Source: Balneolaceae bacterium (GTDB lineage Bacteria > Bacteroidota > Rhodothermia > Balneolales > Balneolaceae). Taken from it: DNA of 64,000 nt. The translations under genes were made by a program, and so were the position numbers. Below are positions 14,406 to 27,117 of the stretch, in pieces. Within the stretch, counting starts at the first letter, position 1. Every line of letters begins with the position of its first letter. The notes beneath the pieces were generated by a model. It was given only the letters and a program-made list of their open reading frames with translations. It did no database searches and was not told the DNA's origin. Where the stretch lies: assembly GCA_007134085.1 (NCBI GenBank), contig SLLL01000038.1, positions 21,555 through 85,554 of the forward strand, read 5' to 3'.

Positions 14406-16817
14406 TCACCAGGGGTACTTAGCCGGGGCAGCCTCATGCATCATTTCGTAGATTTTTTCTATGATGTCTTCCTTTCCGGGTTTTGAAAAGTAATCTCCAT
14501 CAGATGCGTATGCGGGCCGGTGAGCATTTGCAGTTAAGCACTCCGCTTTGCTGTCGAGATAGTGATATCCGCCGTGTTCATCAAGAATAGTTTGCATCAT
14601 ATAAGCCGTAGCACCGCCCGGAACATCTTCATCCACAAACAAAACTCTGTTTGTTTTTTTGATGGAGTTTAAAATCACTTTATTCAGGTCGAAAGGAAGA
14701 AGTGTTCTCACATCAATCAATTCAACAGAAATGTTCAGCTCATCAAAATCAGGCAGCAGGCTTTCGATAATATTCAATGTAGAGCCGTAAGACACTACAG
14801 TAATATCGGTTCCTTCTTTCAGGATTTTTGGAACTCCCAGAGGAACAGTGAATTCACCAAGATTTACCGGCATTTTTTCTTTGAGCCTGTAAGCATTCAA
14901 TGGCTCAATAACCAGTGCGGGATCATCTCCCTGCATCAATGTGTTATAAAAACCTGCGGCATCCGTGAGGTTTCTGGGCACACAAACATGCATACCACGC
15001 AACCCATGAACAATCATACCCATTGGTGAGCCAGCGTGCCAGATCCCCTCAAGGCGATGGCCGCGCGTTCTTACAATAAGTGGATATGCCTGCCCGCCTT
15101 TCGTTCGGTAGCGTACTGTAGCCACATCATCACTCAACCCCTGAAAACAATAAAGTAAATAGTCGAGATACTGAATTTCTGCGATTGGACGCAAACCACG
15201 TAAAGACAAGCCTATCCCCTGCCCGAGTATTGTAGCTTCTCGTATACCTGCGTCATTTACACGTATTTTCCCATATTTTCCCTGCATGCCTTCAAGGCCA
15301 AGGTTTACGTCTCCAAGTTTCCCTACGTCTTCACCAAAAACCATGGTGTTAGGGTATTTTGTGAACAGGGCATCAAAATTGTTTCTGAGAACAACACGCC
15401 CGTCAGCTATTTTGGAGGACTCATCATAAACAGGTTCTGTCTCTTTTACATGTAGCGGTGAATTGGGGGTTTCACTGTACAGATGTGATTGATATAGTTC
15501 TCTGTTTTTATCTGTTTGATCTTTGATCCACTCTTGCAATGCTTCTTTTGCGGGTGAGCTCACACCTCTGAGATGCATCGCCGAGCGTCTAACCCTGGCC
15601 ATTATATCACGTCGGATCAGCTTAGTTTTACTTGACAGAGAGGTACGCAGTTCCTGCACTTTTTTAATGTCAGGGTGGGCTTTAATACAATCATCAAGAA
15701 GGCCAACAGCCTGCTTTTTCAACCTGAGAATTGGTTCCTGAAACTTTCTCCACGCTTTTTTCTGCTCTTCATATACTTTGGCTTTAGCTTCTTTTTCAAT
15801 AGCTAAAAGCTCTTCCTCAGTCGCAATTTCTTCTTTGATAATCCACTCTCTGAACTGGGTGATACAGCAATACTCACTCTCCCACTCAAGGCGTTCATCA
15901 TCCTTATAACGCTCATGAGAACCGGAGGTTGAGTGCCCAAGCGGCTGTGTAACTTCCTCAACGTGTACCAACACCGGCACATGTTCATCCCTGGCTATGG
16001 CGGCTGCCTCATTGTAAACTTCAATTAAGCCTTCATAATCCCAGGCATTCACTGTAAAAATTTCGAACCCGGTTTCTTTTTTTGTACGCTTGAAGCCTCG
16101 AAGTGCCTTTGATATACTCTCTTTTATGGTCTGATATTTTTTTGCAACAGAAATTCCATAGCCATCATCCCAAACAGAGATGATCATTGGAACCTGCATC
16201 ACGCCGGCTGCATTCAGAGTTTCCCAAAACAACCCTTCCGAAGTACTTGCATCACCGATGGTTCCCCAGGCTATTTCATTGCCGTTATCAGAGAACGTTT
16301 TCATCTCTTTAACGGCATCGCAATTGCGGTACACTTTCGATGCCTGAGCAAGGCCAAGCAGCCTCGGCATTTGACCCGCAGTGGGCGACATATCAGCAGA
16401 GGTATTTTTGCTCTGTGTTTGATCAATCCAGGTGCCATCATTGTTCACCAACCGCGTGGCAAAATGCGAGTTCATCTGGCGGCCGGCAGAGTTTGGGTCC
16501 TCATTAACATCAGGATTGGCATACACCTGAGCAAAAAATTCAGCAATGGTTAACTCACCAATTGCCATCATAAAGGTTTGATCTCTGTAATAACCAGATC
16601 TGAAATCCCCCTTTTTAAAGAATTTTGCCATTACAATCTGTGGCAGCTCTTTCCCGTCACCAAATATTCCAAACTTAGCTTTACCTGTAAGAACTTCTTT
16701 TCTGCCAAGGCGCGACATCTCTCTGCTAACACGTGCAAGCCGATAATCCTTAAGGACTTCTTCTATGTGTTGCTTTGAGTATTCTGTTTGCGTCGCTTCC
16801 TTGGATGCCATAAACAT
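14406..16817 (-). CDS. Fused 2-oxoacid (probably branched-chain) dehydrogenase E1 alpha+beta
   Basis: TPP-binding GDASTSEG...N and HSTSG in the alpha half. FGEDVG, IRE, EIQYLDY and ELIDVRTL in the beta half. 803 aa. Confidence 0.92.
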   Translation of the reverse strand: MFMASKEATQTEYSKQHIEEVLKDYRLARVSREMSRLGRKEVLTGKAKFGIFGDGKELPQIVMAKFFKKGDFRSGYYRDQTFMMAIGELTIAEFFAQVYANPDVNEDPNSAGRQMNSHFATRLVNNDGTWIDQTQSKNTSADMSPTAGQMPRLLGLAQASKVYRNCDAVKEMKTFSDNGNEIAWGTIGDASTSEGLFWETLNAAGVMQVPMIISVWDDGYGISVAKKYQTIKESISKALRGFKRTKKETGFEIFTVNAWDYEGLIEVYNEAAAIARDEHVPVLVHVEEVTQPLGHSTSGSHERYKDDERLEWESEYCCITQFREWIIKEEIATEEELLAIEKEAKAKVYEEQKKAWRKFQEPILRLKKQAVGLLDDCIKAHPDIKKVQELRTSLSSKTKLIRRDIMARVRRSAMHLRGVSSPAKEALQEWIKDQTDKNRELYQSHLYSETPNSPLHVKETEPVYDESSKIADGRVVLRNNFDALFTKYPNTMVFGEDVGKLGDVNLGLEGMQGKYGKIRVNDAGIREATILGQGIGLSLRGLRPIAEIQYLDYLLYCFQGLSDDVATVRYRTKGGQAYPLIVRTRGHRLEGIWHAGSPMGMIVHGLRGMHVCVPRNLTDAAGFYNTLMQGDDPALVIEPLNAYRLKEKMPVNLGEFTVPLGVPKILKEGTDITVVSYGSTLNIIESLLPDFDELNISVELIDVRTLLPFDLNKVILNSIKKTNRVLFVDEDVPGGATAYMMQTILDEHGGYHYLDSKAECLTANAHRPAYASDGDYFSKPGKEDIIEKIYEMMHEAAPAKYPW

Positions 16818-16981
16818 ATTTCTAAAAAATTCTTAAACAGTTTAAACAGGTATCACCATTAAATGGCGCAGTTATAATAACAGGAACTGTTCCTATTTAC
16901 AAAACAGATTATTCCCGTTTTGCCTAAATAAGGCAGAGCAAATTGTAATGTTTAGTTGAAGGGGGATTTCTGATTGATTAT

Positions 16982-18373
16982 TTACTCAGTAAATCCACCT
17001 TTGGTCATGTTCATCGGATTCAGAGCATTGCTAAGCTCCTCGTCAGAGAGGTCTGTCATTTCTTTGGCAACATCCATAACTGCTCTGTTTTCAGCAAATG
17101 CAGTTTTGGCAATTTTCGCTGCTTTGTCATATCCAATAAGTGGGTTGAGTGCAGTTACGAGAATTGGGTTTCGCCCAACCATATCTGCAATAACTTCTTC
17201 TCTCGCAATGAGTCCGCTTACAGATTTGTCTGCAAAGGTACGGGCTGCGTTTGCAAGTATTTCTATCGATTGAAGCAGGTTATGCGCTACAACCGGCAAC
17301 ATAACATTCAATTCAAAATTACTTGATTGCCCTGCAATTGTAATTGTAGCATCATTACCTATAACCTGGGCACAAACCATTGTGAGCGATTCCTCAATAA
17401 CCGGGTTTACTTTTCCGGGCATAATTGAAGAACCGGGTTGAAGAGCCATGAGTTGAACCTCGCCAAGCCCACTATTAGGCCCGGAATTCATCCACCTGAA
17501 ATCGTTACCGATTTTCATCAGTGATACTGCAAGTGTTTTCAGCTGGCCTGATAACTCAACCGGGGCATCAACTGTAGCCTGTGCTTCAAAATGGTTTTCT
17601 GCTTCAATAAATTTTTCGCCGGTAGATTTCGATACATCTTCCGCGAAAAGTTTTCCAAAATCTTTATGGGTATTAATTCCAGTGCCCACAGCCGTACCGC
17701 CCTGAGGAAGCTCTCTCATCCGCACCAGAGCTGATTCAATTCGTTCAATTGCGAGCTCTAATTGGCGGGCATAACCGCTGAACTCCTGCTGAATGGTTAC
17801 CGGCATTGCATCCATCAAATGCGTACGGCCTGTCTTAACCACATGCTTCAGTTCATCCCCTTTTTCTGTGATGGTCTTGTGCAGATGCTTAAGTGCAGGA
17901 ATCAAATGATTCTTTACAGAAAGAACTGCTGAAATCCGGATAGCAGTTGGGATTACATCATTCGAGCTTTGCCCGAAGTTTACATGATCGTTCGGGTGAA
18001 TGTTTACATCTGTACCTGATTTTATTTCGTTAGCGCGTTTTGAAATAATTTCGTTGGCATTCATATTGGTTGATGTACCTGAACCTGTCTGGAAAATGTC
18101 CAGTACAAAGTCATCATCAAACTTATTTTCTACCACTTCTGCAGAAGCTTTTTCAATTGCCTCTGCTACTTTTTTGTCTAAAAGGCCGAGATCTGCATTT
18201 ACTCTTGCAGCGGCATGCTTTACCTGCCCTACTGCCGAAATAAATACGGGGCTAAATCCTATTCCACTGATTTTAAAGTTTTCGAATGCTCTCTGAGTTT
18301 GGGCTCCATAGTATGCATTAGCGGGCACTTTAACTTCGCCCATTGAATCTTTTTCTATGCGAAAATCTGCCAT
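16982..18373 (-). CDS. fumC: Class II fumarate hydratase
   Basis: RIEKDSMGEV, QTGSGTSTNMN, GRTHLMDA, GSSIMPGKVNP. Confidence 0.93.
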   Translation of the reverse strand: MADFRIEKDSMGEVKVPANAYYGAQTQRAFENFKISGIGFSPVFISAVGQVKHAAARVNADLGLLDKKVAEAIEKASAEVVENKFDDDFVLDIFQTGSGTSTNMNANEIISKRANEIKSGTDVNIHPNDHVNFGQSSNDVIPTAIRISAVLSVKNHLIPALKHLHKTITEKGDELKHVVKTGRTHLMDAMPVTIQQEFSGYARQLELAIERIESALVRMRELPQGGTAVGTGINTHKDFGKLFAEDVSKSTGEKFIEAENHFEAQATVDAPVELSGQLKTLAVSLMKIGNDFRWMNSGPNSGLGEVQLMALQPGSSIMPGKVNPVIEESLTMVCAQVIGNDATITIAGQSSNFELNVMLPVVAHNLLQSIEILANAARTFADKSVSGLIAREEVIADMVGRNPILVTALNPLIGYDKAAKIAKTAFAENRAVMDVAKEMTDLSDEELSNALNPMNMTKGGFTE

Positions 18374-18574: not shown

Positions 18575-19708
18575 CTACAGATTCTTGCTGTACATTCGGT
18601 AACGCTTATCGATAGTGCCGCCAATTTTCTCAGCAACCCTTAACATTTGGATATTATTTTCGAGAATCCAGCCAACTTCTGAGGAATAAAAATTCTTTTT
18701 AAGGCCGTTTTCTATTGCCTCTCTGTGCAGAAGAACATCAATACCCCTACCCTGATACTCAGGTATAACGCCCATGAGCGCAGTTCTGATTTTGTTGATT
18801 TTTCTCTTATTCCACAAAATTTTAAAGATCCCAAATGGCAGCAACCTCCCATTCATCTTTCTGAAAATCTGGTTGAAATCGGGCAGGGCTACCGAAAAAC
18901 CAACCGGTTTACCATCTATCTCCGCAATGTGAGCAAAATCATCATCTACAATAGTTTTTAGGTCTGCGGCAAGTGCATCGAACTCTTCAGTACTTAGCGG
19001 AATAAAACCCCAGTTATTTTTCCAGGCGCTGTTAAAAATCTCACGGATTATGGTTACTTCTTCCCTGATTTTCTTCAGTTTAATCTTGCGAATAGTAATA
19101 CCGGGCAGCCTTTTCTTTACAATCTCCATTGCGCGGTTAGCACGGCCTCTGTCAACAGAGTCCTGAGTAACAAGATACGTGAGAAGATCCATCTCTTTTT
19201 TATACCCGGCTTCGATCACCAGCTTATCGTAGTATGGCTTATTATAGGGCATTAGTATAGATGGATACTTATCGAAGCCCTCAACCAAAATCCCGATTTC
19301 ATCCATCATACCGGGGTTTGCCGGGCCAAGTACCTGTTCCATGCCTTTTTCGCGCAGCCAACCTTCTGCTACTTTAAAAAGCAGGTTTGATGTTTCGGGT
19401 TTATCAATCGATTCAAAAAAACCAAAAAAGCCGGTTTTAGTATTGTGAAACCGATTGTAGCGGTGATCAATAATTGCAGCAATTCTGCCGGCCGGTTTGT
19501 TATTCAGAGTGGCATAAAAAAATGCGATATCTGCATTATTGAAGAAGGGATTCTTTTCTGTACTCTGGAGCTTTTTTTGCTCAATCAAAAGAGGGGCTAC
19601 CCAAAACTCATCATCTTTATAATGATTGTAGGGAAAATGCAGAAAATTCTTTTTTTCCTCTTTTGTGGTAACAAATGTTACCTGATGAGTGTCAGGCCTC
19701 TTCTTCAC
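18575..19708 (-). CDS. GNAT-fold YghO-like protein; probable bacterial ceramide synthase (bCerS)
   Basis: F...P...Y.DD..WV.PL, GRIAAIID, GFFGFFES, GP.NP, G.LVEGF....MPYN..YY and E.GWILENN pattern. Starts 2 bp after the spt stop codon. Confidence 0.75.
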   Translation of the reverse strand: MKKRPDTHQVTFVTTKEEKKNFLHFPYNHYKDDEFWVAPLLIEQKKLQSTEKNPFFNNADIAFFYATLNNKPAGRIAAIIDHRYNRFHNTKTGFFGFFESIDKPETSNLLFKVAEGWLREKGMEQVLGPANPGMMDEIGILVEGFDKYPSILMPYNKPYYDKLVIEAGYKKEMDLLTYLVTQDSVDRGRANRAMEIVKKRLPGITIRKIKLKKIREEVTIIREIFNSAWKNNWGFIPLSTEEFDALAADLKTIVDDDFAHIAEIDGKPVGFSVALPDFNQIFRKMNGRLLPFGIFKILWNKRKINKIRTALMGVIPEYQGRGIDVLLHREAIENGLKKNFYSSEVGWILENNIQMLRVAEKIGGTIDKRYRMYSKNL

Positions 19709-19710
19709 GG

Positions 19711-20955
19711 TTAATCCGCTTCAATAAGTGACTGGCCATTCTCGTCTATAATGCCGTGCTTAATGCCAACCTTCCTAAAGGCATCAAGAATCTTGTTGAG
19801 ATGTTCATCAGTATGGGTGGCCATATAACTTGTTCTAACCAGTGCCTGGCCCTGTGGTACAGCAGGAGGAACAACAGCATTCACGTAAACACCCTCTTCA
19901 AACAGGTCTTTCCAGAATTGAAAACATCTCATCATATCCCCTACAACCACGGGAATAATCGGGGTTTGGCTGGACCATACATTAAATCCAAGATTACGCA
20001 GCTCAGTGCGCATATAGTTAGAAATTTCTTCGAGCCTCTCAAGCCTCCAGGGCTCTTCCTGTAGTATTTCGAGTGATTTCAAAACAGTGGCAACATTTGC
20101 GGGTGGCATACTCGCACTAAAAATGTGTGCGGGTGACTGATGCCTAATGAAATCAATAACCGTTTTATCACCTACTAAAAAACCACCAAGTGATGCGAAA
20201 GATTTTGAAAAGGTACCACTGATAAGGTCAACTTCGTCCATAAGGCCAAAAACGGATGCAGATCCACGGCCGCCATCGCCAACTACGCCAATTGCATGTG
20301 CATCATCAAGATAGAGGCCCGCATCAAACTCTTTTGCTAGCTTTACAAGTTCGGGCACTTTAGCAAGTGTACCGGACATTGAGAACACGCCATCTGTAAC
20401 TATAATTTTACCTGCATCGGGATCAGCCTTTTCAAGGTATGATCTCAGCTGCTCCATATCGTTATGGCGGTAACGAATTGTTTTTGCATTCGATACCTGT
20501 GTACCTACCACAATACATGCATGGTTGTCTCTGTCAGAAAAAATAAGATCGTTTCTGCCGGCTATTACCTGTATTGAACCTTCATTGGTTTGGTAACCGG
20601 TACTAAAAAGAACACACGCTTCTTTGCGCATGAAAGTGGCTAATTTTTCCTCAAGTTCAAGATGAAGATCTAACGTGCCGTTTAAATATCGTGAGCCGGT
20701 ACAGCCTGTGCCGTAAACATCAATTACACTTTTTGCGGCTTCAATGGTTCTTGGATCATTTGTAAGCCCGAGGTAATTATTCGAGCCGGCCATGATTACA
20801 TCTCTTCCTTCAATGTTTACACTTGTGCCGTCTGTAGCCTGCAGAGGTTTAAAATAGGGGTATAATCCAAGCTTTTTTATCTCCTCTGCGATGGTAAAGT
20901 CGTAAGCCTTTTTAAATACTTTACTGTAAGAGGGATCGGCTTTAGTTTCGGCCAT
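19711..20955 (-). CDS. spt: Serine palmitoyltransferase (alpha-oxoamine synthase family)
   Basis: GLYPYF, GSNNYLGLT, GTGCTGSRYLNGT, DNHACI, DDAH, GTFSKSF (PLP lysine) and IFSAS. This pattern fits SPT better than BioF or Kbl, and the neighbouring gene is bCerS-like. Confidence 0.85.
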   Translation of the reverse strand: MAETKADPSYSKVFKKAYDFTIAEEIKKLGLYPYFKPLQATDGTSVNIEGRDVIMAGSNNYLGLTNDPRTIEAAKSVIDVYGTGCTGSRYLNGTLDLHLELEEKLATFMRKEACVLFSTGYQTNEGSIQVIAGRNDLIFSDRDNHACIVVGTQVSNAKTIRYRHNDMEQLRSYLEKADPDAGKIIVTDGVFSMSGTLAKVPELVKLAKEFDAGLYLDDAHAIGVVGDGGRGSASVFGLMDEVDLISGTFSKSFASLGGFLVGDKTVIDFIRHQSPAHIFSASMPPANVATVLKSLEILQEEPWRLERLEEISNYMRTELRNLGFNVWSSQTPIIPVVVGDMMRCFQFWKDLFEEGVYVNAVVPPAVPQGQALVRTSYMATHTDEHLNKILDAFRKVGIKHGIIDENGQSLIEAD

Positions 20956-21038
20956 TATTAAAGGTAGTTGTATTCACATTAAACAGGTAAATATACCGAG
21001 ATATCTAATTCAATCAAATTCAGAACGTAACAAACCGC

Positions 21039-22151
21039 CTATTCATTCACAGATTTGAGGAATGAAATATAGTTTTCAACTACGGCATCCCAGGTAAATG
21101 TACCCATTACGTACTCCCTGCTTGTTTTTGAAAGGCTCTCAAGTTCATTGGCAAGAATAGCATCAATTTTCCCGGCAAATGCTTCGGCATCTCCATGCGG
21201 CAACCGGTAACCATTTACTCCCTGTTTAATCACATCTTTTATCCCTTCAAGGTCTGATGCTACGGCCGGCACCCCGGCTCTGTTTGCTTCAAGCAGAACT
21301 ATTCCAAACCCTTCCATATCTCCTTCTACCGGTATGTTGGGCATAATGAAAATGTCAGCTGCGGCATAACAAACGTGCAGCATTTCAATCGGTAATCTGC
21401 CTGTTAGAACAATTTTCTCCCCTTTACCGCACTGCTCTTTAGCTAAGATAATATTATCCAGTTCCGGCCCATCCCCAACAATCATATAAACCACATCCGA
21501 TTGTATCTTCCCGAAAGCATCTCTGATAAACCACTCATGACCTTTTCTTTTTACTTGCCTGCCAACCGTTAACAGAATCTTTGATTCCCCAAGATCAATC
21601 CCAAACTCTTTTTCCAGCATTTTACGGGCTGCCGGTTTTTCGGGTTGATTTCTTTCTGATGTGGCATCAAAACCGTTAAATAGTGCCCTCCCTTTTTCCG
21701 GGTCCATGCCCCTGTCGATAGATGCCTGCCGCGTAGCTGATGATACCGAAATTACACCACTAAGGTTTTTAAATATTTTCGGCACATACCATTGATAGAT
21801 AGGATTGGGAAGTGTTACGTCCTGCCCGTGATTTATAGTTACGCAAGGTACCTTAGGTTTACGAATCATTGCCGGCAACACACCCGATGTTACCATGGAA
21901 GAGAAAAGAATTACATCCGGCTCAAACCGTTTCACGGCTGCGGGAATTCTCCACAAAAGCCTTACCAGAAAAAAGAACGTCTTAATACCAATAAACCGCC
22001 AGGATGAGTGAAGTATAATGGCCTCAATTTCAAGATCATCCCTGCGCTTCATAGCTTTAATCATCTGCAAGCTAACGTTCTGCATACCGCCGATACTCTT
22101 TAACGGCTTGTTTTTAGGCGGATGAAGATGTGAGATATATAGAATGCGCAA
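21039..22151 (-). CDS. GT4 glycosyltransferase
   Basis: GT-B fold with VGRQVKRKG and EGFGIVLLEA. Confidence 0.9.
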   Translation of the reverse strand: MRILYISHLHPPKNKPLKSIGGMQNVSLQMIKAMKRRDDLEIEAIILHSSWRFIGIKTFFFLVRLLWRIPAAVKRFEPDVILFSSMVTSGVLPAMIRKPKVPCVTINHGQDVTLPNPIYQWYVPKIFKNLSGVISVSSATRQASIDRGMDPEKGRALFNGFDATSERNQPEKPAARKMLEKEFGIDLGESKILLTVGRQVKRKGHEWFIRDAFGKIQSDVVYMIVGDGPELDNIILAKEQCGKGEKIVLTGRLPIEMLHVCYAAADIFIMPNIPVEGDMEGFGIVLLEANRAGVPAVASDLEGIKDVIKQGVNGYRLPHGDAEAFAGKIDAILANELESLSKTSREYVMGTFTWDAVVENYISFLKSVNE

Positions 22152-22155
22152 TATT

Positions 22156-23295
22156 TTAGCCCTTTTCTTTTAATACTTCCCGGTAGTACCCCACCAAATT
22201 GTTATTAATAGAATCCCAGCTGTAGCTTTTTGATTTTTCCAGGCCATCCTGCCCCATACCTTTCCGTAGTTCTGAATCAGTCACCAGTTTATCAATGAAA
22301 GTATAGAATTTATCGGTGCTTTCAACAGGTATTACAAATCCGTTCTCACCATCTTTCACGAGAGACTTGCTTCCGGTGGCATCCGCAACAACTGCCGGCA
22401 ATCCACTCGCCATTGCTTCAAGAGTTACATTGCCGAAAGTTTCCGTATCTGACGGAAAGAAGAAAATATCACTGCTTGCGTAAGCTGTTGCTAAATCAGC
22501 ACCACCAAGAAATCCTGTAAATACGGCATCCGGCATTAGCTCTTTCATTTCGCCCATTGCCGGGCCGTCACCAACTATCATCGCTTTCGCATGTTCTCTT
22601 TTTTTTGTGATTTTATTCACCACATCAGCAAAGAGTTTCAGGTTCTTCTCCCATACCAGCCGCGAAATAAACGTGATCACAATATCTTCAGGCTCAAAAC
22701 CATGCTTTTTCCGCCATTCATCACTCCTTCTGCCAGGGTTGAATATCTCGCTTTCAATGCCACGGGCCCAAATTCTGAAATCTGTTTCTATCTTTTTCTC
22801 TTCAAGAATTTCCTGCATAGAGGGTGATGGCACAAAAACCAGTTCACACTTCCTGTAAAACCAGGAAAGATATTTCCACATTGCCGGTTCAAGCAGCGAA
22901 ACTTTATAATATTTGAGATAGCTGGAAAAGTGCGTATGATAAGAAGAAACAACAGGTTTATCATATTTCACAGCCCACTTTAAAGCCTTGTAGCCCAGCA
23001 GATCGGGCGTAGCGATGTGGATAATATCCGGATCAAAATCACGGAGTTTTTGCCGCTGTTCGCCCGGAAACGCCCTAGAAAAACGATATTCCGGCCTGCC
23101 AGGGAGTTTCATTGATGGAACTGAAATCAACGTACCGCTGTGATCAAGAGCGGGTTCATCAATCGTTGGGCCGAAAACCAAAACATCAATATCATTCTTT
23201 ATCAAATAGGCCACCAACCGATTCAGGGTGAGAGAAACCCCGTCGCGAATGTGGTTATAGTTACCGGTAAACAGAGCTACTTTAAACCGGCTCAT
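22156..23295 (-). CDS. GT4 glycosyltransferase of the lipid-glycosylating MgtA/Agt-like type
   Basis: DGVSLTL, IHIATPDLLG, SSYHTHF..Y, SRLVWEKN and ETFGNVTLEAMASG. Confidence 0.9.
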   Translation of the reverse strand: MSRFKVALFTGNYNHIRDGVSLTLNRLVAYLIKNDIDVLVFGPTIDEPALDHSGTLISVPSMKLPGRPEYRFSRAFPGEQRQKLRDFDPDIIHIATPDLLGYKALKWAVKYDKPVVSSYHTHFSSYLKYYKVSLLEPAMWKYLSWFYRKCELVFVPSPSMQEILEEKKIETDFRIWARGIESEIFNPGRRSDEWRKKHGFEPEDIVITFISRLVWEKNLKLFADVVNKITKKREHAKAMIVGDGPAMGEMKELMPDAVFTGFLGGADLATAYASSDIFFFPSDTETFGNVTLEAMASGLPAVVADATGSKSLVKDGENGFVIPVESTDKFYTFIDKLVTDSELRKGMGQDGLEKSKSYSWDSINNNLVGYYREVLKEKG

Positions 23296-23507
23296 TTCCC
23301 CTGTAGCATTTCATTTATCAACATGTACATCCGGTAGATATCTGTTTTGTTACGCTAATGCTGATCACTTTTTAGCAGGTTCGGTTTTTATCTTTTTATT
23401 GATGAACACAGTATCTTAAAGCGTTGGTTCAAAAAATAACAGTTATGGTATCAGCAGACATTTTTGAGCGCACTATTTAATATTAGGCCAATGAATATAC
23501 AAAGATA

Positions 23508-24482
23508 ATGAATGTATTTGTTACCGGCGGAACCGGTTTTATAGGCAGCCATCTTGCAGACAGTTTAATAGAAAGCAGCAGTGTTGGCGAGGTTAAATGC
23601 CTTGTTCGCAGTAACGAAAAGTGGCTTGAGGGAAAGCAGTTCACGAAAGTAAACGGAGATCTTCACTCTATAAGAACCATAGAAGAGGCTCTTGATGGCA
23701 TAGATACCATTTTTCACCTGGCAGCCATCGTTAAGGCACCATCAAAAAAAGAGTTTACCCACGCCAACGTAGATGCCCCCGAAAACCTGATGCGTCTCGC
23801 AAAAAAAGCAGGTGTAAAAAAAATGGTGATTCTCTCATCTCTCGCTGCAGCCGGCCCCAGCAACGGCACGCCATTAACCGAGCAGGATGAAATGAAACCC
23901 ATCAGCATGTATGGCCGCTCAAAAAAAGAGATGGAAGTGATGATTCATGAGCTTGCCGATCCCGATATGTCCATCACCATTTTGAGGCCGCCGGCTGTTT
24001 ATGGCCCTCGGGAAGATCAGATTTTTACCCTCTTCAAAATGATGAGTAAAGGAATTGCACCCATTGTTGGTGATGGCGAACACCCCCGTTTGTCGATAGT
24101 GTATGTGGCTGATTTGATTCAGGGTATTTTGAAGGCTGCAGAACAGATAGAAAAAGGCGTGCATACCTACTTTATAAGCGGAGAGGATGTTGCAAACTGG
24201 AACCAGATACGAGATATTGTTACAACCGTTCTGAACCGGAATGTCACATCCATAAAAATACCCCCAAACTGGGTTAAAAAAATTGCCGGAGTGATCGAAA
24301 CATCAGCGTCATTTTTTGGTTCATATCCCGTTATTAACCGGGAAAAAGCAAACGAAATGGTACTCGAGTGGACCTGCTCCCATCAAAAAGCGGCAAACGA
24401 ACTCGGTTATCAGCCGGAATATTCTCTCGAAGAAGGTATTTCCAGAACTCTGAGATGGTACAAAAAACATAATTGGTTATAA
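23508..24482 (+). CDS. Extended SDR (NAD-dependent epimerase/dehydratase family); candidate ceramide reductase
   Basis: TGGTGFIG, SSLAA, YGRSK (YxxxK), RPPAVYGP. The reductase role is inferred from context only. Confidence 0.85.
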   Translation: MNVFVTGGTGFIGSHLADSLIESSSVGEVKCLVRSNEKWLEGKQFTKVNGDLHSIRTIEEALDGIDTIFHLAAIVKAPSKKEFTHANVDAPENLMRLAKKAGVKKMVILSSLAAAGPSNGTPLTEQDEMKPISMYGRSKKEMEVMIHELADPDMSITILRPPAVYGPREDQIFTLFKMMSKGIAPIVGDGEHPRLSIVYVADLIQGILKAAEQIEKGVHTYFISGEDVANWNQIRDIVTTVLNRNVTSIKIPPNWVKKIAGVIETSASFFGSYPVINREKANEMVLEWTCSHQKAANELGYQPEYSLEEGISRTLRWYKKHNWL

Positions 24483-24488
24483 ACGTTT

Positions 24489-26021
24489 ATGCGATTACTA
24501 CAGACAAAGCTACTACTCATCTTTTCTCTGATTTTTCTTGGCCTCAGCAGTGTGGCAACTGCACAATTGCAGAAAGATCTTAGCCGGCAAATTCAAATCC
24601 CCGACATCAACAACCTCAACAGTTCGGTTACGCATCTTTATATTCTTTCTGAAAGTGAGGGATTGGTTGTTTTTCGTGCGCATGCCGATTCACTGCAGTG
24701 GCTTTATTCTTCAACAGGCATGCAACAGCGCGGCAACATTCTGGAAAGTGATATCCGTTTTGCATACCTCTACGGAACCGGAAGAAGGCTTACCGTAATT
24801 GAACCAACCTCTGTTCTTGGTGTTTATTCATCAACCATGCTCCCGGCGCGCCCGCTATCGGTAAAACGAATCGGTCAGCAGCTTTTTGTTGCGATGGGTT
24901 CAAACGGGCTTGGCACTATTAACCTGGAAACACCGGAGAGTGTTGATACCGATCTTAATATGATTGAGAGCAGTGAGAACATCCGTGATCTTGAATCGGA
25001 TGGGCGCAGAACTCTATATGCGCTTAACAACGACAACGAAATTTTGATCTACGAAATATCCGAAGAAGAAGTAGCCAACCGGCAGAGAGTGCAGGTAAAC
25101 CGAACCACATCGAAACTTTGGCTGCTTGATGATGAACTTTACGGCAGTGATAGTTCAGGCAGAATTTTCCTCATCAATTCCGATGGAAACACACGTACCA
25201 TTGCCCAACTTTCAGGTGAAATTGAACGATTTGATAAGTGGAACGGGCTGATGATTGCCCGAACCGAAAGTGGCGAAGTATGGAGAGGCCCGGTTGGTGG
25301 TGATATGGATATCTGGCGATCGAACAGACAGGCCGGTAACTTCTTCACGGTTTCCGAAGATAACCTGTGGCTCACCGAATTCGACGGACTCGCTCCAGTT
25401 TTAAGCAGGGAACAATCAGACAGCAGGCCGCAGGCTTCTGCATCCCTGCGATTAAAGCCGATCAACAATGTGGTGTTGCCATTCCCTCGCCCGCTGCTTC
25501 TGCCTATTGAGTTCGAATCACAAACCGATCCCTCTCAGGTTTCCATCAGCTATACTGCATCATTTAATAATGCGCGTATTCGGGGTAAATCGTTCTACTG
25601 GCAGCCTGCAACAGGGCAAACCGGCCGGCACAATGTTACCATTATAGCTACATCAGCCGGTGGCGAGACAGACAGCACATCATTCACCATTGACCTCCGC
25701 CCATTCAACTCTCCACCCAGGTTTACAGCTGCAAGGCCTATTACCATTGCTGTTGATGAAGCTTTCGATTTACAAATCAATGCCATTGACCCGGACGGTA
25801 TGGATCAAAATCTTATCCGATATCTTGGTGTTGATATGCCGGATGGTGCATCCATCAACGAGCGCACGGGAGTTTTCAGCTGGACCCCAAACGTTCGGCA
25901 GGTAGGCGGCCACGAATTTCAGGTGATTGCCACCGATCAATTCGGTGCTGCTGCTTCTCAGAATTTTACCATCAACGTGATAGAAATTGTAGAAGAGCCG
26001 CTTGATGATGAGCTCTACTGA
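24489..26021 (+). CDS. Exported protein with a beta-propeller-like N-terminal region and two C-terminal putative-Ig/cadherin-like domains
   Basis: Signal peptide; NSPPRFT, AIDPDG, PDGASINERTGVFSWTP and FYWQP repeats. Confidence 0.75.
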   Translation: MRLLQTKLLLIFSLIFLGLSSVATAQLQKDLSRQIQIPDINNLNSSVTHLYILSESEGLVVFRAHADSLQWLYSSTGMQQRGNILESDIRFAYLYGTGRRLTVIEPTSVLGVYSSTMLPARPLSVKRIGQQLFVAMGSNGLGTINLETPESVDTDLNMIESSENIRDLESDGRRTLYALNNDNEILIYEISEEEVANRQRVQVNRTTSKLWLLDDELYGSDSSGRIFLINSDGNTRTIAQLSGEIERFDKWNGLMIARTESGEVWRGPVGGDMDIWRSNRQAGNFFTVSEDNLWLTEFDGLAPVLSREQSDSRPQASASLRLKPINNVVLPFPRPLLLPIEFESQTDPSQVSISYTASFNNARIRGKSFYWQPATGQTGRHNVTIIATSAGGETDSTSFTIDLRPFNSPPRFTAARPITIAVDEAFDLQINAIDPDGMDQNLIRYLGVDMPDGASINERTGVFSWTPNVRQVGGHEFQVIATDQFGAAASQNFTINVIEIVEEPLDDELY

Positions 26022-27117
26022 AGACAGCCTTTTTTCGAAAAACCTGATTGATTGGTACCGGCAGAATAAACGGGACCTCCCCTGGCGAAACACGAATGAC
26101 CCGTACGCCATCTGGATTTCTGAGATTATGCTTCAGCAGACCAGGGTTGATACGGTAATTCCCTATTATCACCGGTTTCTTGAGGCATTCCCCACTGTAC
26201 ATGACCTGGCAAAAGCCGATCAACAGCAGGTATTAAAGCTTTGGGAAGGCCTTGGTTACTACAGTCGCGGCCGAAACCTTCACTATGCCGCCAGGCATGT
26301 TGTGGAACATTTCGACGGAACCATTCCTGATACCCATGAGGAGATTTCATCGCTTAAGGGAATTGGCCCCTACACTTCGGCGGCCATTTTGAGTATAGCC
26401 TATCAAAAAAAGTATGCGGTTGTTGATGGTAACGTGATCCGTGTGGTTGCCCGCTATTTTGGCATTGAGGATGACATCAGAAGTACCCGTACCAAAAATG
26501 AGGTGCAGGAAATTGTTGATGGGTTGATTCCTGCCGATAGCCCCGGCGATTTTAACCAGGCCATGATGGAGCTTGGGGCAACTGTCTGCACGCCTAAACA
26601 ACCCGGATGTGATTCTTGCCCGCTTTCAGTGCATTGTATGGCCTACAACAGCGCAAAAACAGAGGTGATTCCGTATAAGTCGAAAGCTAAAAAAGTGCCC
26701 CATCACCAGATTGGGGTGGGAATTATTGTAAATGAAGCCGGTGAATTGCTAATTGCACTGCGCCCTGAAGAGAGCATGCTGGGCGGGCTCTGGGAATTTC
26801 CCGGTGGCAAAAAGAAAACCGGAGAGGGTTTACAGCAAACCGTAGCCAGAGAGCTGAAAGAGGAGCTTGAAGTTGAGGTACAGGTGTACGATAAATTTAT
26901 GGGCCTGAAACACGCCTACTCCCACTTTAAAATTACGCTGCATGCGTACTGGTGTAAAATTGTTGATGGTACACCAAAGCCAAAATCGAGCCAGGAAATC
27001 CGCTGGGTTTCTCTGGAGGAGATCAGCAGTTATCCGTTTCCCAAAGCCAACACCACGCTGATTGGCAGATTGAAAAAACTGGATGCCGAAAATCTGTTTC
27101 AATTTGTATCCGAATGA
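26002..27117 (+). CDS. mutY: A/G-specific adenine glycosylase with a C-terminal Nudix domain
   Basis: RDLPWR, SEIMLQQT, GLGYYSR, HhH LKGIGPYT, VDGNV.RV and Fe-S motif CTPKQPGCDSCPLSVHC. Confidence 0.96.
   Translation: MMMSSTEDSLFSKNLIDWYRQNKRDLPWRNTNDPYAIWISEIMLQQTRVDTVIPYYHRFLEAFPTVHDLAKADQQQVLKLWEGLGYYSRGRNLHYAARHVVEHFDGTIPDTHEEISSLKGIGPYTSAAILSIAYQKKYAVVDGNVIRVVARYFGIEDDIRSTRTKNEVQEIVDGLIPADSPGDFNQAMMELGATVCTPKQPGCDSCPLSVHCMAYNSAKTEVIPYKSKAKKVPHHQIGVGIIVNEAGELLIALRPEESMLGGLWEFPGGKKKTGEGLQQTVARELKEELEVEVQVYDKFMGLKHAYSHFKITLHAYWCKIVDGTPKPKSSQEIRWVSLEEISSYPFPKANTTLIGRLKKLDAENLFQFVSE

Follow-up and report, generated by a model that had tools for sequence, protein, structure and literature searches.

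A putative glycosphingolipid locus in Balneolaceae pairs an Sgt1-type glycosyltransferase with a second GT4 enzyme unrelated to Sgt2

Introduction

Detailed knowledge of bacterial glycosphingolipids comes from only a few lineages (sphingomonads, Caulobacter and Bacteroides); some of these lipids act as potent immune ligands or take the place of LPS. In Caulobacter, ceramide is made by Spt, bCerS and CerR, a pathway that PMC11087976 credits to Stankeviciute and colleagues. Sgt1, the Caulobacter ceramide hexuronosyltransferase, then adds hexuronic acid to ceramide, and in vivo it glycosylates ceramide and not diacylglycerol (DAG) (PMC6445935). The first sugar is likewise added by retaining GT4 enzymes in Bacteroides fragilis (the alpha-galactosylceramide synthase BF9343_3149) and in Zymomonas and Sphingobium (ceramide glucuronosyltransferases) (PMC9692976, PMC13318209). 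The references that have been used to find ceramide enzymes include an Agrobacterium GlcDAG/GlcADAG synthase (PMC13318209).

Cultured Balneolaceae contain unidentified glycolipids, with GL1 and GL2 resolved in Fodinibius alkaliphilus (PMC12260241, PMC12162075); our literature search yielded no relevant report of sphingolipids from Balneolales or Rhodothermales. Here we describe a Balneolaceae locus within a 64-kb stretch of DNA (the window, to which all positions refer). On balance we judge it probable that this locus is a glycosphingolipid cluster, in which one enzyme (GT-A) places the first sugar on ceramide and another (GT-B) the second, yielding a diglycosylceramide. The pathway is of a known kind, and its second transferase is unrelated to Sgt2.

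Two GT4 genes adjoin a set of ceramide genes

The two distinct GT4 genes described in a sequence-only reading of the window are genuine. GT-A (22156..23295, minus strand, 379 aa, ATG start) is an Sgt1-type GT4 glycosyltransferase predicted to add the first sugar to ceramide, and GT-B (21039..22151, minus strand, 370 aa, TTG start) is a second GT4 glycosyltransferase predicted to add the second. Both have the Pfam domains of the family, over gathering score: Glyco_transf_4 (E = 1e-29, 103.7 bits in GT-A; E = 4e-13, 50.2 bits in GT-B) and Glycos_transf_1 (E = 2.5e-33, 115.4 bits; E = 1.4e-32, 113.1 bits). Aligned with each other, the two proteins match only in their C-terminal domains (35% over residues 205–374, E = 3e-14). 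The TTG start of GT-B is credible because its first 22 residues are conserved in orthologues, with H8, P11, G21 and G22 invariant.

AF2 models of GT-A (pLDDT 94) and GT-B (pLDDT 91.4) both have the two-Rossmann fold of the GT-B fold class (a class name distinct from our protein label) and show two GT4 features, an EX7E motif and an R/K pair for phosphate binding; these residues are invariant (R212/K217 and E285-x7-E293 in GT-A; R198/K203 and E280-x7-E288 in GT-B). Fold searches with both models placed BshA, MshA, PimB' and GlgM at the top of the PDB (TM 0.77–0.81), which are generic GT4 matches at 17–21% identity and silent on acceptor or donor. The N-domains of the two proteins are basic (pI 9.2 for GT-A and 10.2 for GT-B) and point to action at the membrane surface; that of GT-B also has a long hydrophobic helix at residues 54–76.

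Both genes lie upstream of spt and a bCerS-type gene on the same strand, with a CerR-like reductase gene divergent from GT-A. The GT-B start is 4 nt past the GT-A stop, and the gaps along GT-A, GT-B, spt and bcerS are 4, 83 and −4 nt. The Spt, a serine palmitoyltransferase-type alpha-oxoamine synthase (19711..20955, minus strand, 414 aa), was recognized from profile and PDB matches. It scored 504 bits against the NCBIfam CFB-Spt model (SerpalmtaseCFB), under the cut-off of 640 and well above the KBL/BioF models, and its best PDB match was the Sphingobacterium multivorum SPT (430 bits), against 297 bits for KBL and about 220 bits for cysteate acyltransferases. We considered a cysteate acyltransferase (sulfonolipid) identity for this protein and rejected it on the difference between 430 bits to a solved SPT and about 220.

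The bCerS-type ceramide synthase (18575..19708, minus strand, 377 aa), whose start overlaps the spt stop by 4 nt, has a C-terminal GNAT domain (Pfam Acetyltransf_1, residues 221–363) and is 35% identical over 377 aa (E = 1e-76) to a protein of Caulobacter sp. X that NCBI names 'ceramide synthase' (WP_099535984.1). The CerR-like SDR, of the NAD-dependent epimerase/dehydratase family (23508..24482, plus strand, 324 aa), matches the Pfam/NCBIfam models Epimerase, 3Beta_HSD and OleD-like keto-lipid reductase. In Caulobacter sp. X the closest match to it (31%, E = 6e-24) is encoded directly upstream of Spt, and homologues lie between bCerS and GT-A in Leadbetterella and beside Spt in a Saprospiraceae MAG. 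The locus thus holds all three gene types (Spt, bCerS, CerR-like SDR) that would supply GT-A with a ceramide acceptor; it has no gene for ACP or an acyl-ACP synthetase.

The reading that the glycosyltransferase genes head an spt operon stands in part. They share a strand with spt, and the 83-nt gap between GT-B and spt has no terminator-like site, but it does contain a conserved promoter-like motif, TTTGATTGA-N14-GTATATT (20990..21018, minus strand), of the Bacteroidetes −33 TTTG / −7 TAnnTTTG type. The motif emerged solely from comparing orthologous spacers: 11 of 12 Balneolales loci keep both TTTG and TATATT, and the rest of the spacer is only 45% identical. The pattern occurs twice in the whole window. 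Scanning for sigma-70 promoters gave no more sites than chance would (16 versus 17.5 expected). Because of the conserved motif, spt–bcerS probably has its own transcription start; GT-A and GT-B may nevertheless be co-expressed with spt.

GT-A belongs to the clade of Sgt1

The proposal that a first enzyme glycosylates ceramide gains support from GT-A, which is Sgt1-like. It aligns with Caulobacter Sgt1 (ACL94258.1, P0423 in our protein set; accession verified) over its full length with a single gap (376 aa, E = 3e-109), at 41% identity, a level that fixes neither the acceptor nor the donor of GT-A. Starting from Caulobacter sp. X, cluster look-ups combined with accession numbers gave the identity of Sgt1, whose neighbourhood was read from genome G440; an initial protein search and the MAG L050 (Caulobacteraceae) had led to no named Caulobacter vibrioides match, and genome position alone was unconvincing. 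In trees from quick searches, with SH-aLRT as the sole support measure and no bootstrap, Sgt1 fell within a 34-row clade (SH-aLRT 99) holding all Balneolales and Rhodothermales GT-A sequences. Firmicute, Chlorobiaceae, Ignavibacteria, Cytophagales and cyanobacterial members fell outside it. The Thermosynechococcus member (L087) served as an outgroup only, as its neighbours did not confirm an SqdX identity. By sequence, then, GT-A belongs among the retaining GT4 lipid glycosyltransferases of the Sgt1 clade, and its predicted acceptor, ceramide, is suggested by gene context. Homologues at 37.5–40% identity are present on sphingomonad replicons.

GT-A has the three motifs DGV..T, ATP..LG and YHTHF that had been noted in this gene (D18-G-V-S-L-T23, A95-T-P-D-L-L-G101 and Y119-H-T-H-F123). 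They are conserved family-wide, with the third reading SLHTLF in Sgt1. Their interpretation as a signature of lipid-acting GT4 enzymes did not hold: they mark a GT4 subfamily, and neither lipid acceptors in general nor ceramide, because Bacillus and Paenibacillus members carry them and we found no bCerS in the three such genomes searched. The nearest NCBIfam models to GT-A were GlcNAc-PG synthase, BgsA/IagA and alMGS (NF053787, NF053513 and NF049988), at 147, 97 and 94 bits against cut-offs of 480, 460 and 400. With regard to the donor, the genome encodes three NDP-sugar dehydrogenases, so a hexuronic donor (UDP-GlcA) could be made, which says nothing about the specificity of GT-A.

GT-B occupies the slot of Sgt2 without being its homologue

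The second enzyme is no relative of Sgt2. Against Sgt2 (ACL94257.2, P0434), GT-B showed no homology beyond the generic GT4 C-domain (25% over 163 aa, E = 2e-4). Its best NCBIfam model was BshA (TIGR03999), at 90.7 bits against a cut-off of 273.7, and we rejected a bacillithiol role on that score; it was also below the cut-offs for DAG/PG glycolipid synthases (51 against 480 and 45 against 460).

GT-B was present in 67 of 75 sampled Rhodothermia, all 67 of them GT-A-positive, and in none of 226 other Bacteroidota. GT-A without GT-B does occur (G040/L010, Chlorobiaceae and others). The two genes are adjacent across two orders, and in one genome (G131) GT-B is far from GT-A. The genome studied here has no Sgt2-type gene. 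In six sampled Balneolaceae genomes without GT-B, a GT4 protein 44% identical to Sgt2 (E = 3e-113) is encoded between GT-A and Spt. Such Sgt2-type proteins, 44–45% identical to Sgt2, fill the GT-B slot in genera g11 and g19, so that the replacement rests on one or two evolutionary events only. A further genome, L031, has both GT-B and an Sgt2-like gene; the two types are therefore not strictly alternatives.

Stepwise mono- then di-glycosylation, as foreseen for this pair, with GT-A acting first and GT-B second, would fit the distribution, because GT-B is never found without GT-A and GT-A occurs alone, and because GT-B alternates with true Sgt2 homologues in one slot.

GT-A relatives recur in sphingolipid loci

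The contiguous order GT-A, GT-B, Spt, bCerS is found in about 36 of 40 relatives from seven families. Part of this conservation reflects slow rearrangement, since Balneolales synteny also takes in the unrelated genes mutY and fumC. Rhodothermales have the GT-A/GT-B pair, unlinked to spt.

Linkage of GT-A relatives to sphingolipid genes was also seen, in other gene orders that look independent, in Leadbetterella (Spt–GNAT–SDR–GT-A, with an Spt of 658 bits, above the cut-off), in Saprospiraceae, in Longimicrobiaceae (GNAT–GT-A) and in an alphaproteobacterial MAG (AOS–sphingolipid delta-4 desaturase–GT-A–Sgt2-like). Caulobacter sp. X has a second GT-A-family paralogue three genes from its ceramide synthase. 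A bCerS homologue was found in 10 of 11 non-Firmicute genomes with a GT-A relative, and none was found in three of three Bacillus/Paenibacillus genomes or in one Thermosynechococcus, all of which have a GT-A relative. Among 300 Bacteroidota, 160 were GT-A-positive; six of these lacked Spt, and four of the six had the weakest GT-A matches.

Family f29, Spt-positive in 16 of 16 genomes searched, had no GT-A homologue at E ≤ 1e-50, so the enzyme of B. fragilis probably branches further away. Family f22, which has many GT-A homologues, was at one point taken for Bacteroidales carrying the B. fragilis enzyme; this was rejected, as f22 is Chlorobiaceae.

A proposed pathway and its alternatives

In the pathway that we propose, Spt would condense serine with an acyl thioester, and the divergent SDR (CerR-type) and the GNAT protein (bCerS-type) would complete ceramide. 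At the cytoplasmic face of the inner membrane, GT-A would then glycosylate the 1-hydroxyl of ceramide, drawing the first sugar from a nucleotide-sugar donor. The linkage is expected to be alpha, from the retaining chemistry of family GT4. With a second sugar added by GT-B, this monoglycosylceramide would become a diglycosylceramide, its headgroup possibly distinct from that of Caulobacter GSL-2, and the glycolipid would presumably be exported to the outer membrane.

The alternatives differ in which step they dispute. GT-A might make the monoglycosylceramide while GT-B makes a parallel, alternative monoglycosyl lipid or uses a non-lipid acceptor (polysaccharide, LPS core or a small molecule). 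The unrelatedness of GT-B to Sgt2 and its lack of any characterized relative would fit, as would its best matches, which are soluble-acceptor enzymes (GlgM and BshA are the nearest structures, at 18–21% identity), the co-occurrence of GT-B with an Sgt2-like gene in L031 and its distance from GT-A in G131. We nonetheless consider this rather unlikely, given that all 67 GT-B genomes in the phylum draw are GT-A-positive, that GT-B neighbours GT-A in two orders (4 nt apart in the window) and is exchanged for Sgt2 homologues at one gene position, and that its N-domain (pI 10.2, with the hydrophobic helix at 54–76) is as expected of a membrane-surface enzyme. A dispute over the acceptor of both enzymes, in which GT-A and GT-B make mono- and then di-glycosyl DAG and the adjacency to spt reflects shared regulation or inheritance of phosphorus-free membrane lipids, is in our view unlikely. 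The acceptor can switch within the GT-A family, because its members include those of Bacillus and Paenibacillus genomes in which no Spt or bCerS was found, as well as the Agrobacterium GlcDAG/GlcADAG synthase that served as a reference for ceramide enzymes (PMC13318209). The nearest NCBIfam models to GT-A are likewise DAG/PG glycolipid synthases, the Rhodothermales pair lies apart from spt, and spt has its own promoter-like motif. Set against this, every NCBIfam score is far under its cut-off, and GT-A shares its clade with Sgt1, which in vivo has no effect on DAG glycolipids. Its relatives also appear repeatedly within sphingolipid loci of unrelated lineages and co-occur with bCerS outside Firmicutes and cyanobacteria, and true Sgt2 homologues replace GT-B in its slot.

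The backbone itself could be other than canonical ceramide, if the alpha-oxoamine synthase used another amino acid to give a sulfonolipid-like or other amino lipid that the glycosyltransferases decorate. Salinibacter, of the same class, makes capnine-like sulfonolipids, Balneolaceae have unidentified aminolipids, and Spt is under the CFB-Spt cut-off (504 versus 640), all of which would suit such a product. We regard it as very improbable: the Sphingobacterium SPT (430 bits) is a much nearer relative of the enzyme than KBL (297) or the cysteate acyltransferases (about 220), bCerS and CerR homologues accompany it in the locus, and the closest characterized relative of GT-A acts on ceramide. Stepwise glycosylation of ceramide by GT-A and GT-B remains our preferred reading.

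Significance and comparison with known systems

No new kind of system is revealed by the Balneolaceae locus. It does place an Sgt1-clade gene throughout a whole order of bacteria from marine and hypersaline settings and its sister order, joined in Balneolales into the ceramide locus, with a second transferase of at least two unrelated types interchanged between genera. More tentatively, and a little short of what we would call probable, GT-B may be the founder of a glycosylceramide-extending family that displaces the Sgt2 type and is confined, among the genomes sampled, to Rhodothermia. Under the same proposal, the glycolipids of Balneolaceae and Rhodothermales (GL1/GL2, Fodinibius) would prove to be mono- and di-glycosylceramides whose headgroup departs from that of GSL-2, and the locus would be cassette-like, its second and sometimes third transferase swapped between genera. 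The GT-B and Sgt2-type variants would form a natural panel of second-step enzymes for defined glycosylceramides, and the two locus types would allow headgroups to be assigned to genes for the 'unidentified glycolipids' of Balneolaceae.

Among described transferases that add a first sugar to ceramide, the B. fragilis enzyme BF9343_3149 (CAH08930.1) and the Zymomonas and Sphingobium enzymes resemble GT-A in the role predicted for it and in being retaining GT4 enzymes. The DAG glycolipid synthases (Acholeplasma alMGS, BgsA/IagA, GlcNAc-PG synthase and the Agrobacterium GlcDAG/GlcADAG synthase) share a broad GT4 lipid-headgroup neighbourhood with GT-A; however, GT-A scores three- to five-fold under the cut-offs of the DAG/PG synthase models and groups with Sgt1 rather than with Firmicute members.

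The closest comparison is with Caulobacter crescentus. Like GT-A, Sgt1 (CCNA_00793) adjoins a second GT4 gene, and the Balneolaceae genome has homologues of Spt, bCerS and CerR. Sgt1 differs from GT-A in its third motif (SLHTLF in place of YHTHF). The Caulobacter sgt1 and sgt2 genes are far from spt, in the PhoB regulon (PMC6445935), whereas GT-A is beside spt. Homologues of all three enzymes of the Caulobacter ceramide pathway are adjacent in the Balneolaceae locus, which differs in that its Spt is of the Bacteroidota type and its glycosyltransferase genes are physically joined to the core genes. GT-B holds a position next to an Sgt1-type gene equivalent to that of the second-sugar hexose transferase Sgt2 (CCNA_00792). 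It is an analogue of Sgt2 by position and not by family, and the sugar that it adds, or the linkage, may therefore differ.

Organization of the locus

Two different GT4 genes lie in tandem in the 3.1-Mb Balneolaceae source genome (91% complete), as the sequence-only reading had proposed: GT-A (23295..22156, minus strand, 379 aa) and, after a 4-nt gap, GT-B (22151..21039, minus strand, 370 aa, TTG start). Each has two GT4 Pfam domains, yet they align only in their C-terminal domains and are therefore distinct GT4s; the three sequence motifs named in that reading were all found in GT-A. On the same strand follow an SPT-type alpha-oxoamine synthase gene (spt, 20955..19711, 83 nt after GT-B) and a gene for a 377-aa bCerS-type protein with a C-terminal GNAT domain (19708..18575, its start overlapping the spt stop by 4 nt). 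An SDR gene of the epimerase/dehydratase family (23508..24482, plus strand) diverges from GT-A.

The Spt reached 504 of the 640 bits that the NCBIfam model for Bacteroidota Spt sets as its cut-off, well above the KBL/BioF models. Its closest solved relative was the Sphingobacterium multivorum SPT (430 bits), compared with 297 bits for KBL and about 220 bits for sulfonolipid cysteate acyltransferases. The GNAT protein matched a Caulobacter sp. X protein named "ceramide synthase" by NCBI (35% over 377 residues, E 1e-76), and the top match of the SDR in that genome (31%, E 6e-24) takes up the CerR position, directly upstream of Spt. By homology, the genes adjoining the GT pair are assigned to the bacterial ceramide trio Spt, bCerS and CerR.

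A second bCerS-like GNAT paralogue (about 28–30% identical, about 380 aa) lies outside the window in the same genome (G000:C143:1043-2152) and in most Balneolales genomes, at a site separate from spt; N-acylation of another amino lipid would be a possible role, and unidentified aminolipids are described from Balneolaceae in the literature. Downstream of bcerS, after 201 nt, are genes for a class II fumarase/aspartase (fumC/aspA) and an 803-aa fused E1 alpha-beta 2-oxoacid dehydrogenase (14406-18373, minus strand), which stay near bcerS throughout the order in varying gene order; any tie to the supply of branched-chain primers for iso-C15 lipids would be speculative. The CerR-like SDR opens a plus-strand group (23508-27117) with a 510-aa He_PIG/Big_9 Ig-domain protein and a MutY-Nudix fusion (7-nt gap, 20-nt overlap), grouped across Balneolales (L010, L011, L012, L026, L030, L072 and L079). 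Such tight packing of apparently unrelated genes warns against inferring function from spacing alone.

No terminator-like site was found between GT-B and spt, and read-through from the GT genes into spt-bcerS is possible. The 83-nt gap also contains TTTGATTGA-N14-GTATATT (21018..20990), a motif that resembles the Bacteroidetes -33/-7 promoter type and whose TTTG and TATATT parts are kept in 11 of 12 Balneolales loci while the rest of the spacer is poorly conserved. This conserved promoter-like motif makes a separate transcription start for spt-bcerS probable, so the description of the GT genes as heading an spt operon was overstated. The heptamer GTATATT, the same core, recurs beside the SDR start (23480-23507, minus strand) and several Balneolales loci keep it at the end of the SDR/GT-A intergenic region nearest the SDR (as GTATATTTGG in L025 and L030); it is a candidate -7 box of a GT-A promoter, or an SDR leader.

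GT-A belongs to the Sgt1 clade

In Caulobacter, genetics has proven two ceramide glycosyltransferases: Sgt1, a hexuronic acid transferase, and Sgt2, a hexose transferase (PMC6445935). With accessions from PMC13318209, we used Sgt1 P0423 (ACL94258.1), retrieved via cluster look-ups, and Sgt2 P0434 (ACL94257.2) from the C. vibrioides representative genome, in which sgt2 is divergent from sgt1.

GT-A aligned to Sgt1 with 41% identity over 376 residues and one gap (E 3e-109). In a 71-row tree, which like an earlier first tree was a quick search without bootstraps, Sgt1 fell within an alphaproteobacterial subclade (SH-aLRT 97) nested in a 34-row clade (SH-aLRT 99) with all Balneolales and Rhodothermales GT-A sequences. 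Members from Bacillus/Paenibacillus, Chlorobiaceae, Ignavibacteria, Saprospiraceae/Cytophagales and Gemmatimonadota/Longimicrobia fell outside it. GT-A is thus classed as an Sgt1-clade enzyme, and the earlier proposal that it adds the first sugar to ceramide, now backed by direct homology, was largely right. Sequences of Rhodothermales and Balneolales flank the alphaproteobacterial clade in the tree, and a single Gemmatimonadaceae MAG is placed within the Rhodothermales; this suggests movement of the Sgt1-type gene between phyla in a direction not fixed by the uncertain root.

Ceramide or diacylglycerol as acceptor

About 36 of 40 relatives, representing seven families of the order, have GT-A, GT-B, Spt and bCerS in one uninterrupted block, and one relative (G037, 90% complete) has none of the four genes. 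Because mutY, the He_PIG protein, fumC and E1 are likewise syntenic, the conserved block carries little weight by itself. More telling are unrelated lineages in which GT-A relatives accompany sphingolipid genes in differing arrangements: Spt (658 bits, over the cut-off)-GNAT-SDR-GT-A in Leadbetterella; GT-A, a GT-B-like gene, SDR, Spt and GNAT in a Saprospiraceae MAG; GNAT-GT-A in a Longimicrobiaceae MAG; a second Sgt1 paralogue (P0273) three genes from ceramide synthase in Caulobacter sp. X; and, co-directionally in an alphaproteobacterial MAG (L080:3737-8325), an alpha-oxoamine synthase, a sphingolipid delta-4 desaturase-type protein (PF08557 and PF00487), and Sgt1-like and Sgt2-like proteins.

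The alternative that the pair makes glycosyl-DAG keeps some probability, since the GT-A family has members from genomes in which no ceramide pathway was found; a bCerS homologue was sought without success in three Bacillus/Paenibacillus genomes and one Thermosynechococcus. The literature searched yielded no Balneolales sphingolipids, and cultured Balneolaceae show unidentified glycolipids, among them GL1 and GL2 in Fodinibius alkaliphilus. The context of GT-A relatives elsewhere points to sphingolipids. A bCerS homologue (35–42% identity) occurs in 10 of 11 non-Firmicute genomes bearing a GT-A relative. GT-A homologues were present in 160 of 300 Bacteroidota drawn, and only six of these 160 were without Spt, four of them with the weakest GT-A matches; Spt-less families mostly lack a GT-A homologue, the exception being the family (f21) that supplied those four.

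The L080 synthase has no good match to any Spt model and its Sgt1-like protein is 47% identical to GT-A; the row would be a compact, undescribed-looking locus for an unsaturated glycosphingolipid. P0273 lies with two nucleotidyltransferases, an LPG_synthase_TM flippase-like protein and a GDSL lipase, downstream of LptF/LptG (L100, G403:C1:836000-855999), a group through which certain Caulobacter strains may make a further sphingolipid headgroup. Among Chlorobiaceae (f22; L004-L006, L015-L019), a GT-A-family gene (36–44% identity) was found in 63 of 63 sampled genomes, an Spt-like gene in 61, and a bCerS homologue in the one genome checked (G514), which fits the aminoglycosphingolipid reportedly present in Chlorobium.

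Predicted structure, chemistry and export

Both enzymes are predicted with high confidence to adopt GT-B folds (pLDDT 94 for GT-A and 91.4 for GT-B). Their closest solved structures (BshA, MshA, PimB' and GlgM) are only 17–21% identical and uninformative on the acceptor, and neither family varies at the R/K phosphate-binding pair or the EX7E glutamates. Basic N-domains (pI 9.2 and 10.2), acidic C-domains (about 4.9) and a long hydrophobic helix in GT-B (residues 54-76) would fit enzymes acting at the membrane surface. Alpha linkages are expected from the retaining chemistry of GT4. Sequence does not reveal which sugars are transferred; three NDP-sugar dehydrogenases in the genome make a uronic acid donor possible.

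In Rhodothermales the pair is unlinked from spt and convergent with genes for an MMPL-family transporter (PF03176) and a DUF3047 protein (L008:6709-9246, L009:5582-8937). The transporter, a candidate glycolipid exporter, has an orthologue on another contig of the window's genome (G000:C61:14971-17484; 45% identical, one in-frame TAG in the match).

Two unrelated families occupy the second-transferase slot

Of the 75 Rhodothermia sampled, 67 have a GT-B orthologue, against 0 of 226 other Bacteroidota sampled, and each GT-B-positive genome also has GT-A. GT-A occurs without GT-B in Chlorobiaceae, in G040 (L010, where it directly precedes spt with no second GT) and elsewhere, a pattern that fits an initiating GT-A and a dependent GT-B.

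In six sampled Balneolaceae genomes without GT-B (genera g11 and g19), a different GT4, sharing 44% identity with Sgt2 across 386 residues (E 3e-113), stands between GT-A and spt. Sgt2 homologues in the locus (44–45% to ACL94257.2) lie at L102:1830-3002 (G233), L103:1801-2982 (G308) and L031:7178-8353, the last a MAG with GT-A, the Sgt2-like gene (45%) and GT-B in one row; no Sgt2-type gene was found in the window's own genome. Loci thus carry one to three transferases, number and type varying among genomes. That two unrelated GT4 families fill one slot argues that GT-B would play an Sgt2-like role, perhaps adding a different sugar or forming a different linkage; no more than one or two evolutionary events underlie the replacement. 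A second-step role for GT-B, as first proposed, is therefore plausible by position, but not through homology to Sgt2 (25% over 163 aa, E 2e-4, against ACL94257.2). GT-B is an analogue of Caulobacter Sgt2 rather than a homologue, alike by position only, and the locus probably encodes a known pathway in which the second transferase has been swapped between unrelated families.
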